From Escherichia coli (GTDB taxonomy: Bacteria; Pseudomonadota; Gammaproteobacteria; Enterobacterales; Enterobacteriaceae), in the NCBI RefSeq assembly GCF_013122565.1, contig NZ_CP053258.1: a stretch of DNA of 64,000 nucleotides; one strand, 5' to 3'. Position 1 is the stretch's first letter. Every line of letters begins with the position of its first letter. The position numbers were made by a program, and so were the translations under genes. A model generated the notes under the pieces. It saw only the letters and a list, made by a program, of their open reading frames with translations, was not told the origin of the DNA and searched no databases. Of the stretch, positions 1,944 to 17,660 are shown one piece after another.

Positions 1944-2603
1944 ATGGATCGTATTGTTAGTTCTTCACATGACCGTACATCACTGCTTAGCACCCATAAG
2001 GTGCTGCGTAATACCTATTTTCTGCTGAGCCTGACGCTGGCCTTTTCGGCGATTACCGCAACTGCCAGTACGGTGCTGATGCTGCCATCTCCGGGTCTGA
2101 TTCTGACGCTGGTGGGTATGTATGGTTTGATGTTCCTGACCTATAAAACGGCGAATAAGCCGACCGGGATTATCTCCGCATTCGCCTTTACCGGTTTTCT
2201 GGGTTATATCCTCGGACCAATTCTGAATACCTATCTGTCTGCCGGAATGGGTGACGTAATCGCTATGGCACTGGGCGGAACGGCGTTAGTGTTCTTCTGC
2301 TGCTCTGCATATGTGCTGACCACCCGCAAAGATATGTCGTTCCTCGGCGGTATGCTGATGGCGGGTATTGTGGTGGTACTGATTGGTATGGTTGCGAATA
2401 TCTTCCTGCAGCTGCCTGCTCTGCATCTGGCGATCAGCGCGGTCTTCATTCTGATCTCCTCTGGCGCTATTTTGTTTGAAACCAGCAACATCATTCATGG
2501 CGGTGAAACGAACTATATTCGTGCCACGGTTAGCCTGTATGTTTCGCTGTACAACATCTTCGTCAGCCTGCTGAGCATTCTGGGCTTCGCCAGCCGCGAT
2601 TAA
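1944..2603 (+). CDS. yccA: Bax-inhibitor-1 family inner membrane protein YccA (FtsH modulator), 219 aa
   Basis: ORF 1944..2603; polytopic hydrophobic sequence matching remembered YccA. Confidence 0.93.
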
Positions 2604-2625
2604 TCTCACCCGCTAACACTGTCAT

Positions 2626-2655
2626 AGCCTCGCTTTATGCGGGGCTTTGTTTTTT
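2626..2655 (+). terminator. Rho-independent terminator after yccA
   Basis: Stem AGCCTCGC / GCGGGGCT with T-rich tail TTGTTTTTT. Confidence 0.6.
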
Positions 2656-2693
2656 GTTACACTGCCGCCAGTCTGATTAAGGTAGTAATAATT

Positions 2694-3023
2694 ATGCTGA
2701 TCTTCGAAGGTAAAGAGATAGAAACGGATACCGAAGGCTATCTCAAAGAAAGCAGCCAGTGGAGTGAGCCGCTGGCAGTGGTGATTGCAGAGAACGAAGG
2801 GATTTCGCTGTCGCCAGAACACTGGGAAGTGGTGCGTTTCGTGCGTGATTTCTATCTGGAATTCAATACTTCTCCGGCGATTCGTATGCTGGTAAAAGCG
2901 ATGGCGAATAAATTTGGCGAAGAAAAAGGTAACAGCCGCTATTTATATCGACTGTTTCCGAAAGGTCCGGCTAAGCAAGCCACCAAAATTGCTGGCCTGC
3001 CAAAACCGGTAAAATGTATTTAA
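2694..3023 (+). CDS. tusE: Sulfur relay protein TusE (DsrC-like), 109 aa
   Basis: ORF 2637..3023 trimmed to ATG at 2694 ([12 protein letters not shown]...); C-terminal PKPVKCI. Confidence 0.9.
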
Positions 3024-3298
3024 CGGATACGAAAATTGGTTAATTCACCCGAGGGATGATGCGGCTCGCTGAGCACCCGTTCTACACGCGCAGAACGCGG
3101 GCCGCCACTCTTTAACCACTGCATTAATTTTTCTACCTGCCCTTCTTCACCGCAAGCAACCACTTCCACGCTGCCATCGTCAAGATTTTTGGCGTACCCG
3201 GTTAAACCCAGTCTTTTCGCTTCGTACTGTGTGGTGTAGCGAAATCCTACGCCCTGAACTCGCCCGTAAACCCAGGCAATTATGCAGACTTTCGACAT
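3020..3298 (-). CDS. yccX: Acylphosphatase YccX, 92 aa
   Basis: ORF 3020..3511 trimmed to [21 protein letters not shown] (acylphosphatase signature); ATG confirmed at 3296-3298. Confidence 0.9.
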
Positions 3299-3392
3299 TG
3301 TTGCTCTCCTTATCCTTAATGGACGCGTTGCAAATCCATGGAAAACTCCGGACAATGACGCCCATTTCTTTGTATCGACAGAAAAGTAAATT

Positions 3393-4583
3393 ATGAGTGT
3401 ACGTTTAGTGTTAGCCAAAGGGCGCGAAAAATCATTACTTCGTCGCCATCCGTGGGTCTTTTCCGGGGCCGTTGCCCGCATGGAAGGTAAAGCCAGCCTC
3501 GGTGAAACCATCGATATTGTTGATCATCAGGGAAAATGGTTAGCACGCGGCGCTTATTCGCCAGCTTCGCAAATCCGGGCGCGCGTCTGGACGTTTGACC
3601 CGTCTGAGTCTATCGACATTGCTTTTTTTTCCCGCCGTTTGCAACAAGCACAAAAATGGCGTGACTGGCTGGCGCAAAAAGATGGCCTCGACAGCTATCG
3701 TTTAATCGCCGGAGAATCTGATGGCCTGCCGGGTATTACTATCGATCGTTTCGGTAATTTTCTGGTGCTGCAACTGCTGAGTGCTGGGGCAGAGTATCAG
3801 CGCGCGGCATTAGTTAGCGCCCTGCAAACGCTTTACCCGGAATGTGCGATTTACGATCGTAGCGATGTTGCGGTACGTAAAAAAGAAGGGATGGAGCTGA
3901 CCCAGGGCCCAGTCACCGGCGAGTTGCCGCCTGCCCTGCTGCCGATTGAAGAACACGGCATGAAGCTGCTGGTGGATATTCAGCACGGACACAAAACGGG
4001 CTACTACCTGGACCAGCGAGACAGCCGCCTGGCTACCCGCCGCTACGTTGAAAATAAACGTGTGCTGAACTGTTTCTCCTATACCGGTGGTTTCGCCGTA
4101 TCGGCACTGATGGGCGGTTGCAGCCAGGTTGTCAGCGTTGATACCTCCCAGGAAGCGCTGGATATTGCACGGCAGAACGTTGAGCTGAACAAACTGGATC
4201 TGAGCAAGGCTGAGTTTGTCCGTGATGATGTCTTTAAATTGCTGCGTACTTATCGCGATCGCGGTGAAAAATTTGACGTTATCGTGATGGACCCGCCGAA
4301 GTTTGTTGAGAATAAAAGCCAGTTGATGGGCGCGTGTCGTGGCTATAAAGATATCAACATGCTGGCGATTCAGTTGCTGAATGAAGGCGGTATTCTCCTG
4401 ACTTTCTCCTGTTCCGGTCTGATGACCAGCGATTTATTTCAGAAAATCATCGCGGATGCCGCAATTGATGCCGGCCGTGATGTACAATTTATAGAGCAGT
4501 TCCGTCAGGCAGCCGATCATCCGGTGATCGCTACCTACCCGGAAGGGCTATATCTGAAAGGGTTTGCCTGTCGCGTCATGTAA
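3393..4583 (+). CDS. rlmI: 23S rRNA m5C1962 methyltransferase RlmI, 396 aa
   Basis: ORF 3393..4583; PUA-like N-terminus plus SAM-dependent methyltransferase fold. Confidence 0.93.
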
Positions 4584-13176: not shown

Positions 13177-13309
13177 GCCAGGGGTGCTCGGCATAAGCCG
13201 AAGATATCGGTAGAGTTAATATTGAGCAGATCCCCCGGTGAAGGATTTAACCGTGTTATCTCGTTGGAGATATTCATGGCGTATTTTGGATGATAACGAG
13301 GCGCAAAAA
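13177..13309 (+). promoter_or_regulatory. ompA 133-nt 5' untranslated leader (stabilising hairpins, Hfq/MicA target region)
   Basis: Sequence from GCCAGGGGTGCTCGGCATAAGCCGAAG to the ATG matches the remembered ompA leader; TSS placement is from literature. Confidence 0.7.
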
Positions 13310-14362
13310 ATGAAAAAGACAGCTATCGCGATTGCAGTGGCACTGGCTGGTTTCGCTACCGTAGCGCAGGCCGCTCCGAAAGATAACACCTGGTACACTG
13401 GTGCTAAACTGGGCTGGTCCCAGTACCATGACACTGGTTTTATTCCTAACAATGGTCCGACCCACGAAAACCAACTGGGTGCAGGTGCTTTTGGTGGTTA
13501 CCAGGTTAACCCGTATGTTGGTTTTGAAATGGGTTACGACTGGTTAGGTCGTATGCCGTACAAAGGCGACAACATCAACGGTGCATACAAAGCTCAGGGC
13601 GTTCAACTGACCGCTAAACTGGGTTACCCAATCACTGACGATCTGGACGTATACACTCGTCTGGGTGGTATGGTATGGCGTGCAGACACCAAGTCTAACG
13701 TACCTGGTGGCGCATCCACTAAAGACCACGACACCGGCGTTTCTCCGGTCTTCGCTGGCGGTGTTGAGTACGCGATCACTCCTGAAATCGCTACCCGTCT
13801 GGAATACCAGTGGACCAACAACATCGGTGACGCACACACCATCGGCACTCGTCCGGACAACGGCCTGCTGAGCTTGGGTGTTTCCTACCGTTTCGGTCAG
13901 GGCGAAGCAGCTCCAGTAGTTGCTCCGGCTCCAGCTCCGGCACCGGAAGTACAGACCAAGCACTTCACTCTGAAGTCTGACGTTCTGTTTAACTTCAACA
14001 AAGCAACCCTGAAACCGGAAGGTCAGGCTGCTCTGGATCAGCTGTACAGCCAGCTGAGCAACCTGGATCCGAAAGACGGTTCCGTAGTTGTTCTGGGTTA
14101 CACCGACCGCATCGGTTCTGACGCTTACAACCAGGGTCTGTCCGAGCGCCGTGCTCAGTCTGTTGTTGATTACCTGATCTCCAAAGGTATCCCGGCAGAC
14201 AAGATCTCCGCACGTGGTATGGGCGAATCCAACCCGGTTACTGGCAACACCTGTGACAACGTGAAACAGCGTGCTGCACTGATCGACTGCCTGGCTCCGG
14301 ATCGTCGCGTAGAGATCGAAGTTAAAGGTATCAAAGACGTTGTAACTCAGCCGCAGGCTTAA
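13310..14362 (+). CDS. ompA: Outer membrane protein A precursor, 350 aa (variant loop allele versus K-12)
   Basis: ORF 13238..14362 trimmed to [21 protein letters not shown] signal; beta-barrel plus C-terminal OmpA domain; APAPAPAP hinge. Confidence 0.95.
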
Positions 14363-14437: not shown

Positions 14438-14890
14438 TTATTCCTTACCCAGCAATGCCTGCAGATCCTGCTTCAGAGAAGACATTTTATTCGCGTATTT
14501 CTCTTTGTTTTCCGCATCTTCAATCAGCTGAACAATCGTTTCAGAAAGCGTTTTACCGCGACGCTGCGCAAGACCAGCCAGACGTTGCCAGACAATAAAT
14601 TCCAGATCGATCGATTTTTTGCGCGTATGCTGGTGTTCCGCATTAAAATGGCGCTTCCGTCTGGCCCGAATGGTTTGCTTCATGCGATTGACCAGTTCCG
14701 GATTCATATGCTTGTCAATCCAGCCATTTACCAGCACGGGTTCATTTTCCAGCGAGAGCAACACATCGACGGCTTCCTGGGCGGCACTGGCTTCTATGTA
14801 ACGGGTGATTAACTCCCCTTCGCGGTGCTTCTTCACCAGATACTTCCATTTCCAACCGCTTTCAAGATTTTCAAGTTGTTGATATTTCAT
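14438..14890 (-). CDS. matP: Ter macrodomain organiser MatP, 150 aa
   Basis: ORF 14438..14890; [26 protein letters not shown]. Confidence 0.93.
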
Positions 14891-15075
14891 AGCGATCTCA
14901 ATGTTACCGTGTAACTCTTTACAGAATATCAGCTTTTTAGGCCAGTGAAGAAAAGAATCTCCATCCTGTGAGCTTTAACGCTCATGCGAGGAGTATTGTC
15001 GGTGCTTTCTACGTGTGCTGTAGTGCCGGTTACGGTATAATCGCGGCTTTGACAACAGACTAAAAAACATCAACT

Positions 15076-16836
15076 TTGACCATTACGAAACTTGCATGGC
15101 GTGACCTGGTTCCTGATACCGATAGCTATCAGGAAATATTTGCTCAGCCACATTTGATTGACGAAAACGATCCTTTATTCAGTGATACTCAACCGCGACT
15201 GCAATTTGCGCTGGAGCAGTTGCTGCATACGCGAGCATCCTCCTCTTTTATGCTGGCGAAGGCCCCGGAAGAGTCTGAGTATCTGAATCTTATTGCCGAT
15301 GCCGCGCGTACGCTACAAAGCGATGCAGGCCAACTGGTGGGCGGTCACTATGAGGTTTCCGGCCACTCCATCCGCTTACGTCACGCAGTGAGTGCAGATG
15401 ATAATTTTGCGACTTTAACGCAAGTTGTCGCTGCCGACTGGGTAGAAGCGGAGCAACTCTTTGGCTGCCTGCGCCAGTTTAATGGCGACATTACCCTGCA
15501 GCCTGGTCTGGTGCATCAGGCAAATGGCGGTATTCTCATCATCTCTTTGCGTACACTGCTGGCGCAACCTCTTCTGTGGATGCGGCTGAAAAATATCGTT
15601 AACCGCGAGCGTTTTGACTGGGTTGCGTTTGATGAGTCGCGCCCTCTCCCCGTCTCTGTGCCTTCGATGCCATTGAAGCTGAAAGTCATTCTGGTAGGCG
15701 AACGCGAATCATTGGCTGATTTCCAGGAGATGGAGCCAGAGCTTTCAGAGCAGGCTATTTATAGCGAATTTGAAGATACTCTGCAGATTGTCGATGCGGA
15801 GTCAGTAACCCAGTGGTGTCGCTGGGTGACATTTACCGCCAGACATAATCACTTACCTGCACCGGGAGCGGATGCCTGGCCGGTACTTATCCGCGAAGCA
15901 GCACGCTACACCGGTGAACAAGAAACGCTGCCGCTTAGCCCGCAGTGGATCCTCCGCCAGTGTAAAGAGGTCGCCTCCCTGTGTGATGGCGACACCTTCT
16001 CCGGCGAGCAGCTAAACTTAATGCTACAGCAGCGTGAATGGCGCGAAGGTTTCCTCGCTGAACGCATGCAGGATGAGATCCTTCAGGAGCAAATCCTGAT
16101 TGAAACCGAAGGCGAACGCATCGGGCAAATTAACGCCCTTTCGGTCATTGAATTTCCGGGTCATCCACGCGCTTTTGGCGAACCTTCTCGCATTAGCTGC
16201 GTTGTGCATATTGGCGATGGTGAATTCACCGACATCGAGCGCAAAGCGGAGCTTGGCGGCAATATCCATGCGAAAGGGATGATGATCATGCAGGCGTTCC
16301 TGATGTCGGAACTACAGCTTGAGCAACAGATCCCCTTCTCAGCATCGCTGACATTTGAGCAGTCATACAGTGAAGTTGATGGAGATAGTGCCTCGATGGC
16401 TGAACTCTGCGCCCTGATAAGCGCCCTCGCCGATGTGCCGGTGAATCAGAGTATCGCTATCACAGGTTCAGTCGATCAGTTCGGTCGCGCCCAGCCGGTC
16501 GGTGGTTTAAATGAGAAAATCGAAGGCTTCTTTGCTATTTGCCAGCAACGTGAGTTAACCGGGAAACAAGGTGTCATTATCCCCACAGCTAACGTTCGCC
16601 ATTTAAGTCTTCACAGTGAACTGGTGAAAGCAGTAGAAGAAGGCAAATTCACCATCTGGGCAGTAGACGATGTGACTGACGCACTGCCGTTATTATTAAA
16701 TCTGGTGTGGGATGGCGAAGGCCAAACGACGCTGATGCAAACCATCCAGGAACGTATCGCGCAAGCATCGCAACAGGAAGGACGTCACCGTTTTCCATGG
16801 CCATTACGTTGGCTGAACTGGTTTATTCCGAACTGA
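15076..16836 (+). CDS. ycbZ: Lon-related protease-domain protein YcbZ, 586 aa, apparent TTG start
   Basis: ORF 15076..16836; C-terminal Lon S16-like region ([16 protein letters not shown]...GGLNEKIEG); no Walker A GxxxxGK[ST] seen; first codon TTG. Confidence 0.88.
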
Positions 16837-16866
16837 TCGGACTTGTTCAGCGTACACGTGTTAGCT
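16831..16866 (+). promoter_or_regulatory. fabA promoter operators: FadR box (AACTGATCGGACTTGTT) and FabR palindrome (AGCGTACACGTGTTAGCT)
   Basis: Both motifs read directly, about 40-75 nt upstream of the fabA ATG; the FadR box overlaps the ycbZ stop codon. Confidence 0.75.
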
Positions 16867-16904
16867 ATCCTGCGTGCTTCAATAAAATAAGGCTTACAGA
16901 GAAC

Positions 16905-17423
16905 ATGGTAGATAAACGCGAATCCTATACAAAAGAAGACCTTCTTGCCTCTGGTCGCGGTGAACTGTTTGGCGCTAAAGGCCCGCAATTGCCAGCACCG
17001 AACATGCTGATGATGGACCGTGTGGTCAAAATGACCGAAACGGGTGGTAACTTCGACAAAGGGTATGTTGAAGCAGAACTGGATATCAATCCGGATCTGT
17101 GGTTCTTCGGATGCCACTTTATTGGCGATCCGGTTATGCCGGGATGCCTGGGCCTGGACGCGATGTGGCAGCTGGTAGGGTTCTACCTCGGCTGGCTGGG
17201 CGGCGAAGGTAAAGGCCGCGCGCTGGGCGTTGGCGAAGTGAAATTCACTGGTCAGGTACTGCCGACAGCGAAAAAAGTGACCTACCGTATTCACTTTAAA
17301 CGCATTGTTAATCGTCGTCTGATTATGGGTCTGGCAGATGGCGAAGTGCTGGTTGATGGTCGTCTGATCTATACCGCCAGCGACCTGAAAGTCGGTCTGT
17401 TCCAGGATACGTCTGCCTTCTGA
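16905..17423 (+). CDS. fabA: 3-hydroxydecanoyl-ACP dehydratase/isomerase FabA, 172 aa
   Basis: ORF 16707..17423 trimmed to [23 protein letters not shown]; ATG confirmed at 16905. Confidence 0.95.
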
Positions 17424-17444
17424 TTATAATCAGACAGAGTATCA

Positions 17445-17480
17445 AAAGGCGAAACCTCCGCAATGCGGAGGTTTCTTTTT
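17445..17480. terminator. Bidirectional terminator between fabA and rmf
   Basis: Stem CCTCCGC / GCGGAGG, loop AAT, T-run on plus strand and A-run (T-run for rmf) on the other side. Confidence 0.75.
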
Positions 17481-17492
17481 AAAGAGACAGAA

Positions 17493-17660
17493 TCAGGCCA
17501 TTACTACCCTGTCCGCCATGGCTTCTCGCCAGCCTCCCAGCCATTGTGACCTTTGATTCAGCGTCTGATAGGGACACATTTCTTTTGAGCGTCCGGCGAT
17601 GCCGGCCTGATAACCACGTTGATGTGCCCGTTCCAGGCGATCTCGTTTTTGTCTCTTCAT
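17493..17660 (-). CDS. rmf: Ribosome modulation factor Rmf, 55 aa
   Basis: Absent from the ORF track (under 60 aa). Hand translation of the reverse complement gives MKRQKRDRLERAHQRGYQAGIAGRSKEMCPYQTLNQRSQWLGGWREAMADRVVMA. Confidence 0.92.
   Translation of the reverse strand: MKRQKRDRLERAHQRGYQAGIAGRSKEMCPYQTLNQRSQWLGGWREAMADRVVMA

Follow-up and report, generated by a model that had tools for sequence, protein, structure and literature searches.

YcbZ of Escherichia coli, a Lon-like protein best described as a reduced relative of LonC

The ycbZ locus

In a stretch of 64,000 nucleotides of Escherichia coli DNA (contig NZ_CP053258.1 of assembly GCF_013122565.1; hereafter the window), ycbZ occupies positions 15076..16836 of the + strand, a coding sequence of 1761 nt that begins with TTG, ends with TGA and specifies a protein of 586 amino acids. 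A preliminary description, made from the letters of the window, had read an open reading frame of 586 codons at this place, and the RefSeq/PGAP coding sequence is identical to it (WP_000156526.1, 1761 nt; 2177-3937 of our locus L001, with matching coordinates). The gene lies, as had also been said, divergent to matP (14438..14890, - strand), from which 185 bp separate it, and it is followed by fabA (16905..17423, + strand), the downstream gene of a ycbZ-fabA transcription unit that has been described as an operon (PMC4161252); the open reading frame list and RefSeq agree on both neighbours. Profile searches, a structural model and analogy with solved relatives lead us to the view that YcbZ, a protein of LonC lineage, is likely a Lon-like serine protease that works without ATP. 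Much of what can be said about the gene is already annotated or published: ycbZ itself, its TTG-initiated product of 586 residues, homology to Lon in the absence of ATPase motifs, the LonC subfamily, the FadR box at its end and the ribosome stall at Pro585/Asn586. What is added here is modest: the delineation of YcbZ-type proteins as a branch of the LonC-like family that has neither helical-hairpin extension nor P-loop, the deep conservation of a TTG start without Shine-Dalgarno sequence, and the conservation of a stop codon set inside a FadR box.

The region is present at an identity of at least 90% in 5425 of 5426 complete E. coli genomes (best 99.5%), and the protein matches cluster P0002 (6079 member sequences) with 100% identity. 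Among free-living relatives, with protein identities down to 46%, the loci show the same order matP/ycbZ/fabA as far as their contigs extend. Candidatus Dasytiphilus stammeri, an endosymbiont with a genome of 0.59 Mb (CP145875.1), has a homologue of 50% identity (L006, 1501-3252); matP and fabA have been lost there as neighbours, with ompA now found upstream and guaA downstream. If YcbZ is what we take it to be, we are dealing with a protease carried by essentially every E. coli genome and retained even in this much reduced one. Its naming varies: PGAP gives the product as 'AAA family ATPase', while other records have 'Lon protease family protein' or 'endopeptidase La'. The first of these names is misleading, as the sequence gives it no support.

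A protease domain of Lon type

The Lon S16 protease domain extends over about residues 345-545 (16108..16710, + strand), as delimited by Pfam Lon_C, by NCBIfam TIGR00764 and by sequence and fold matches in the PDB. That a Lon S16-like catalytic region stands in the C-terminal third had been proposed in the preliminary description, and this is borne out both by a Lon_C match above cut-off (residues 435-539, E 2.5e-10, 105 residues against 94 profile positions) and by the catalytic motifs. The predicted nucleophile, Ser438 (AGT, 16387..16389, + strand), belongs to a GDSAS motif, and the predicted catalytic Lys481 (AAA, 16516..16518, + strand) to a NEKIEGFF motif which aligns with the catalytic lysine region of MtaLonC, the LonC of Meiothermus taiwanensis. 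Gly436, Asp437, Ser438 and Lys481 are invariant in 143 of 143 homologues, some of them only about 30% identical to YcbZ. YcbZ thus has what defines the Lon family (MEROPS S16), an S16 domain with a Ser-Lys dyad, and the aspartate that precedes its serine is a signature of LonB and LonC, LonA having a proline at this place (PMC9569914).

Homology searches rank the relatives in the same sense. MtaLonC/TTC1975 (E 1.2e-57, residues 140-547) is far ahead of all other sequence matches in the PDB, with TonLonB (E 1e-15) and LonA (about 1e-4, protease domain only) among the others. The archaeal LonB profile, TIGR00764, aligns with residues 142-556, scoring 86 bits for a cut-off of 517 bits.

A degenerate AAA+ module

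Residues 1-336 (15076..16083, + strand) make up a degenerate AAA+-like module, an alpha/beta subdomain followed by a helical lid, which is recognized in an AlphaFold2 model, by Foldseek and by Pfam AAA_32. The match to AAA_32, a 'LonB-like AAA domain', is above cut-off and covers residues 140-225 (profile positions 35-124 of 133). The model was built from an alignment of 143 sequences of the LonC-like family (alignment A1) and has a mean predicted local distance difference test (pLDDT) of 95.5 and a predicted template-modelling score (pTM) of 0.91. Compared by Foldseek with the crystal chains of MtaLonC, it reaches template-modelling (TM) scores of 0.82-0.83 in both normalisations over about 610 columns; the score is 0.71 for TonLonB (PDB 3k1j) and about 0.3-0.4 for LonA. 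Since the superposition on MtaLonC extends over the full length, the N-terminal 139 residues, which are left out of the sequence alignment, belong to the LonC-type AAA-like fold. The preliminary description had suggested profile searches for Lon_C and AAA+ domains as well as structure prediction. The former returned Lon_C as expected and also an AAA+-like module, which calls for a refinement, even though this module is not intact; the latter gave a LonC-type fold over the whole protein, including an AAA+-shaped module without usable motifs.

No P-loop had been noticed anywhere in the 586 residues, and regular expressions agree: G....GK[ST], [AG]....GK[ST] and a bare GK[ST] match neither YcbZ nor any of the six frames of 14891-16900. 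The place where the loop should be can nevertheless be located. The model shows a strand/P-loop/helix unit composed of strand 58-62 (FMLAK), a short loop and helix 67-80, so that the former Walker A position falls on residues 63-70, APEESEYL (15262..15285, + strand). Both MAFFT and, independently, hhalign put A63-L70 on the GxxxxGK[HTS] of long homologues, with Tyr69 at the position of the Walker A lysine and Glu68 at that of the second glycine. Taken by itself the hhalign comparison of the N-terminal 111 residues with the long forms is weak (probability 27%, E 7e-4); we took it for the register only, in which MAFFT and the fold match over the full length concur with it. The former Walker B position, residues 151-158, GGILIISL (15526..15549, + strand), aligns with GGFLxLDA or GYLILDA of LonC-like proteins; its Asp/Glu positions are Ser157 and Leu158, hence no acidic residue is left. 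Two matches to hhhhD[DE] elsewhere in the protein (at residues 182 and 527) fall outside this position.

These losses can be followed by length class in the family of 143 sequences, if short, YcbZ-type forms are defined as having at most 610 residues and long forms more than 740. A basic residue or a GK is kept in the Walker A columns of 0 of 41 YcbZ-type proteins; among 63 long forms K or R is found in 57, GK in 31 and the full motif in 10. The former P-loop of the short forms has a conservation of its own, with E or D at 65 and Y, F or H at 69. In the Walker B columns YcbZ-type proteins mostly have SL or SA, also GL or PL, and DA in 2 cases, the long forms having DA or EA; the canonical DE pair is found in no sequence of the alignment. 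The AAA+ fold of YcbZ is therefore, as far as sequence and model tell, present but degenerate, devoid of usable motifs for binding ATP. The statement that the protein is not a canonical ATP-dependent Lon thus stands, Walker A and Walker B both being degenerate, and the intact AAA+ module that had been named as evidence to the contrary is not what was found.

Relation to LonC and to other Lon types

LonC was defined by Liao et al. (PMC3391209) by the lack of canonical AAA+ motifs and by two insertions in the protease domain, CX3GLX(G/E) and hydrophobic-x-x-A-hydrophobic, together with a lack of ATPase activity and ATP-independent degradation of unfolded substrates; the same work places more than one Lon subfamily in E. 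coli. Judged on Walker A and Walker B, YcbZ has no canonical AAA+ motif, and it possesses both insertions. The first, residues 489-496, CQQRELTG (16540..16563, + strand), aligns without gap with CKALGLSG of MtaLonC and is one substitution away from the consensus (Gly to Glu), most short forms having the Gly. The second, residues 516-520, LVKAV (16621..16635, + strand), aligns likewise without gap with VLEAV. Cys489 is found in 36 of 36 short forms and Ala519 in 35 of 36.

Later work has proposed a further type-specific feature of LonC, a helical-hairpin extension (HHE) in the alpha/beta subdomain of the AAA module, to which substrate recognition and chaperone activity are assigned (PMC13069640). 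YcbZ does not have it. All the variation in length of the family, from about 550 to 840 residues, is concentrated at one site, between the P-loop helix and the invariant Gly130. This site comes in three size classes, of about 59 residues (YcbZ type), about 125 (middle-length forms) and about 265 (long forms), the other segments remaining constant. In the model of YcbZ the 59 residues form a beta-hairpin, with no long helices between residues 80 and 140. Accordingly, Pfam LonC_helical and LonB_AAA-LID have no match in three YcbZ-type proteins (YcbZ, P0125 and P0138); they match all seven long and middle-length forms, the two shortest of these at or near the cut-offs, with one LonC_helical score just below. 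Across the 143 sequences, the Walker A lysine and the insertion have been lost in parallel. Named short forms come from Enterobacterales and Vibrio, one of them from Candidatus Dasytiphilus stammeri.

The closest solved relative of YcbZ is thus LonC (MEROPS S16.007), represented by MtaLonC, the prototype of Lon-like proteases that work without ATP, and by TTC1975 of Thermus thermophilus. The two have in common the Ser-Lys dyad with Asp before Ser, both insertions in the protease domain and an AAA+-shaped module in which the Walker B glutamate is missing. Each is soluble, with neither the N-terminal domain of LonA nor a transmembrane segment; in YcbZ we find no hydrophobic stretch of at least 15 residues, and by its sequence the protein is soluble. 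There are differences too. Where YcbZ has 59 residues and no HHE, MtaLonC would have some 215, to judge from the alignment offset; MtaLonC still has the aspartate of Walker B and a GxxxxGKH loop that resembles Walker A, whereas YcbZ has neither; and YcbZ comes from mesophilic gammaproteobacteria, in contrast to the thermophilic sources of LonC. Because the LonC insertions of the protease domain are there while the hairpin and the residual nucleotide loop are missing, YcbZ appears best described as a reduced relative of LonC, with the lineage and the protease signature of that type and without its hairpin or its nucleotide loop. It follows that the mechanism of substrate recognition of MtaLonC is not simply transferable to YcbZ-type proteins.

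The other members of the family stand further away. Archaeal LonB (Thermococcus onnurineus, 3k1j; TIGR00764) resembles YcbZ in joining AAA and protease domains without an N-terminal domain, and in its Asp-Ser signature, but it is a genuine ATPase whose Walker A and Walker B motifs are intact, and it has an insertion that anchors it in the membrane; YcbZ has none of these. LonA, the E. coli Lon or protease La, shares a homologous S16 domain and its Ser-Lys dyad; it differs, however, in that its AAA+ ATPase is functional, that a large domain for substrate binding stands at its N-terminus and that a proline comes just ahead of the catalytic Ser, whereas in YcbZ the first strand of the AAA fold begins as early as residue 58 and Asp437 precedes the serine.

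The TTG start and the initiation region

The start codon of ycbZ (TTG, 15076..15078, + strand) is preceded by ACT and has no Shine-Dalgarno sequence. It had been described as the first in-frame start after the upstream stop, which is indeed the case: an in-frame TAA closes the frame at 15061..15063 (+ strand) and the four intervening codons are not starts. The same arrangement is found in Salmonella and Leclercia. The TAA at 15061 also disposes of the possibility, raised in the preliminary description, that an upstream in-frame ATG had been missed. Downstream, the next canonical candidates are a TTG at codon 27 and an ATG at codon 59.

Comparison of nine orthologous loci, with protein identities of 46-100%, speaks for the annotated start. 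In eight of the nine, ACT TTG (ACC TTG in one) stands exactly 7 codons before the conserved Trp8, and in several of these eight a stop closes the frame 1-6 codons further upstream. The lineages differ by synonymous changes at codons 2 and 3. Conservation of residues 4-13 (KLxWxxLxPD) reaches down to 46% identity, and the conserved L6, W8, L11 and P13 lie upstream of every alternative start. The ninth locus, that of Candidatus Dasytiphilus stammeri, has TTA at the position of the TTG and a new ATG three codons upstream. No Shine-Dalgarno-like word is seen in the 22 nt upstream of the start in seven of the eight TTG lineages. On this comparative evidence the TTG start is well supported; it seems to be kept as one element of a weak initiation region, and the persistence of such a start across deep divergence suggests selection for low expression.

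A TATAAT hexamer (15036..15041, + strand), 34 nt before the TTG, may be the -10 element of a ycbZ promoter. It recurs at a similar distance in relatives (TATAAT in loci L002, L003, L005 and L007, TATACT in L009), and this conservation, together with published RNA sequencing, backs it; it is a candidate only, because a consensus sigma-70 scan of 14800-17500 gave no full -35/-10 pair. The initiation region (15054-15078) is A-rich and contains an ACA at 15067-15069, 9 nt before the TTG; in a study of the MazF regulon (PMC5001579), ycbZ is listed with a processing site 9 nt upstream of its start. Within the gene, a scan for terminators flagged a perfect 9-bp inverted repeat, TTCCTGATA...TATCAGGAA, at 15110-15135 (codons 12-20). 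In Salmonella and Leclercia the stem carries a synonymous change that is not compensated, and we therefore reject the idea of a hairpin kept by selection; the repeat is probably incidental to the coding sequence.

The 3' end: an arrest peptide inside the fabA operator

The last 30 residues of YcbZ (16744..16833, + strand) constitute a published ribosome-arrest peptide (PMC8848927). Ribosome profiling revealed a strong stall at which the P site holds Pro585 (16828-16830) and the A site Asn586 (16831-16833); this stall was validated by reporter assays, tRNA sequencing and cryo-electron microscopy (PMC8848927). The stall codons, CCG AAC, are the last two of the gene, and the Asn codon is already inside the FadR operator of the fabA promoter, AACTGATCGGACTTGTT (16831..16847), which holds the TGA of ycbZ (16834-16836). 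The preliminary description was therefore right in placing the stop codon within this operator. Directly downstream comes a FabR palindrome, AGCGTACACGTGTTAGCT (16849..16866), marked as a predicted palindrome in a published probe: positions 16822-16877 of the window are identical to the E. coli fabA probe, carrying FadR and FabR sites, that was used in electrophoretic mobility shift assays (PMC4537474). A full-text literature search did not return the exact string of the FadR box, and it is through this probe that the site is confirmed. Five of the nine orthologous loci have the exact FadR core, CTGATCGGACTTGTT, and in each of them the stop of ycbZ falls at the same place, although the final amino acids differ (IPN, TPN, NHG, NRG).

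The tail of the protein, residues 575-586 (16798-16833), is Trp-rich and basic, conserved in YcbZ-type proteins and part of the arrest peptide, with a pLDDT of 62-72. Bacterial two-hybrid signals with RNase E have been reported for residues 565-586 and also for full-length YcbZ (PMC13232886). We also considered whether this tail might target the protein to the membrane; this is unsupported, its hydrophobic moment being moderate and not exceptional within YcbZ.

One may go further and suppose that YcbZ-type proteins are a distinct minimal Lon subfamily, without P-loop or hairpin extension, whose synthesis is deliberately throttled at both ends, by a TTG lacking a Shine-Dalgarno sequence and by an arrest peptide. 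As the stall codons and the stop are interlocked with the FadR/FabR region, ribosomes that stall or terminate on ycbZ might affect how the fabA promoter is occupied, and the reverse. The retention of the stop in the operator in five of nine lineages and the co-transcription of ycbZ with fabA fit this idea without showing any coupling, and we consider it rather a long shot. Were it true, a protease linked to translation would be coupled to the synthesis of unsaturated fatty acids.

What YcbZ may do, and the alternatives

The scenario that we favour is then the following. An intact Ser438-Lys481 dyad lies within a Lon S16 domain that carries both LonC insertions. This domain is fused to an AAA+-shaped module which has kept the fold but lost the lysine and glycines of the P-loop and both acidic residues of Walker B; missing from it, too, is the helical-hairpin extension by which LonC captures substrates and acts as a chaperone. 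MtaLonC assembles as a hexamer (PMC3391209, PMC13069640) and, in its chaperone mode, as a heptamer (PMC13069640). By analogy, YcbZ may assemble as a ring that encloses a sequestered chamber, with the dead AAA module as no more than scaffold and gate. For want of unfolding driven by ATP, its substrates would have to be polypeptides that are unfolded or intrinsically disordered and that enter by diffusion. Its output would be kept low by the conserved TTG start, and its synthesis would end in the stall at its last two codons. As to the process in which it takes part, ycbZ becomes inactivated in laboratory evolution, and its inactivation makes cells resistant to erythromycin and to a number of further compounds (PMC7686311); Gagarinova 2016, as cited in PMC8848927 and PMC7686311, links YcbZ to translation, and a link to stop-codon read-through has been suggested in published genetics. 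Resistance to translation inhibitors and the suggested read-through link thus point, loosely, to the translation apparatus.

Several points weigh against this picture. The searchable literature gave no biochemical measurement on YcbZ itself, and the published statement that it 'lacks ATPase activity', made in a study where deletion of ycbZ left the turnover of DgcE unchanged (PMC6510439), appears to rest on sequence. MtaLonC binds ATP-gamma-S in a 1:1 ratio by means of its GK-containing Walker A-like loop (PMC3391209); since YcbZ has no GK loop, the precedent of LonC transfers only in part. Finally, MtaLonC recognizes its substrates by the hairpin extension, which YcbZ does not have.

Other explanations have to be balanced against the same evidence. 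The name 'AAA family ATPase' would imply a cryptic nucleotide-dependent Lon, binding or hydrolysing ATP through non-canonical residues, and the retained AAA+ fold with its AAA_32 match, an Arg277 that is nearly invariant in the lid subdomain and the binding of ATP-gamma-S without hydrolysis by MtaLonC could all be read in this way. Yet the loop has Tyr69 in place of the Walker A lysine and carries Glu65, Glu66 and Glu68, no basic residue is seen at the lysine position in any of 41 homologues, Ser157 and Leu158 have replaced the acidic residues of Walker B, and MtaLonC and TTC1975, despite a better-preserved loop, have no ATPase activity (PMC3391209), all of which makes a cryptic ATPase quite improbable. 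A pseudo-protease, devoid of catalysis and working as a scaffold or a chaperone, for instance by binding RNase E or ribosomes, would account for the two-hybrid signals, for the lack of any known substrate and for the unaffected turnover of DgcE, and it would find a parallel in the heptameric chaperone mode of MtaLonC. However, that chaperone function is attributed to the very extension which is missing from YcbZ, and the invariance of Asp437, Ser438, Lys481 and their surrounding motifs in 143 sequences is what selection for catalysis would give; we hold this explanation to be unlikely.

The idea of an ATP-independent protease of LonC lineage has also been confronted with two alternatives of another kind. 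If the annotated TTG were an artefact of choosing the longest frame, YcbZ would start at TTG27 or at ATG59, its first ATG, and the weakness of a TTG with no Shine-Dalgarno sequence in front of it lends this some appeal. It is nonetheless very improbable in view of the conservation of residues 4-13 down to 46% identity, of the synonymous changes at codons 2-3, of the ACT TTG fixed in eight of nine loci, several with a nearby upstream stop, and of the one lineage without TTG having gained its ATG upstream and not downstream; moreover, residues 1-57 are modelled within the fold with a pLDDT of 90-98, and a start at Met59 would leave strand 58-62 as the N-terminus. As for a mobile anti-phage effector of the BrxL/BREX type, BrxL is indeed a Lon-related protein with a divergent AAA module, and faint matches to its profile and structure exist. 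The profile match is nevertheless not significant (TIGR02653, E 0.22, 9.8 bits for a cut-off of 628 bits), the Foldseek TM score to 8emh is only 0.27, and ycbZ is a core chromosomal gene, to be found in fixed synteny with matP and fabA in free-living relatives and not in a defence island, with no BREX genes adjacent. Scores and core-genome synteny together led us to reject a role in defence, which is hardly conceivable.

Minor observations in the neighbourhood

Two features of the surroundings deserve a word. At ompA (13238-14362 of the window), the mechanical list of open reading frames runs 25 codons upstream of the annotated start, an internal ATG, to a GTG; this extension is an artefact of listing the longest frame. 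Between fabA and rmf, which converge, there is a G+C-rich hairpin of 11 bp (17451-17475) with runs of T on either strand; it looks like a bidirectional intrinsic terminator.

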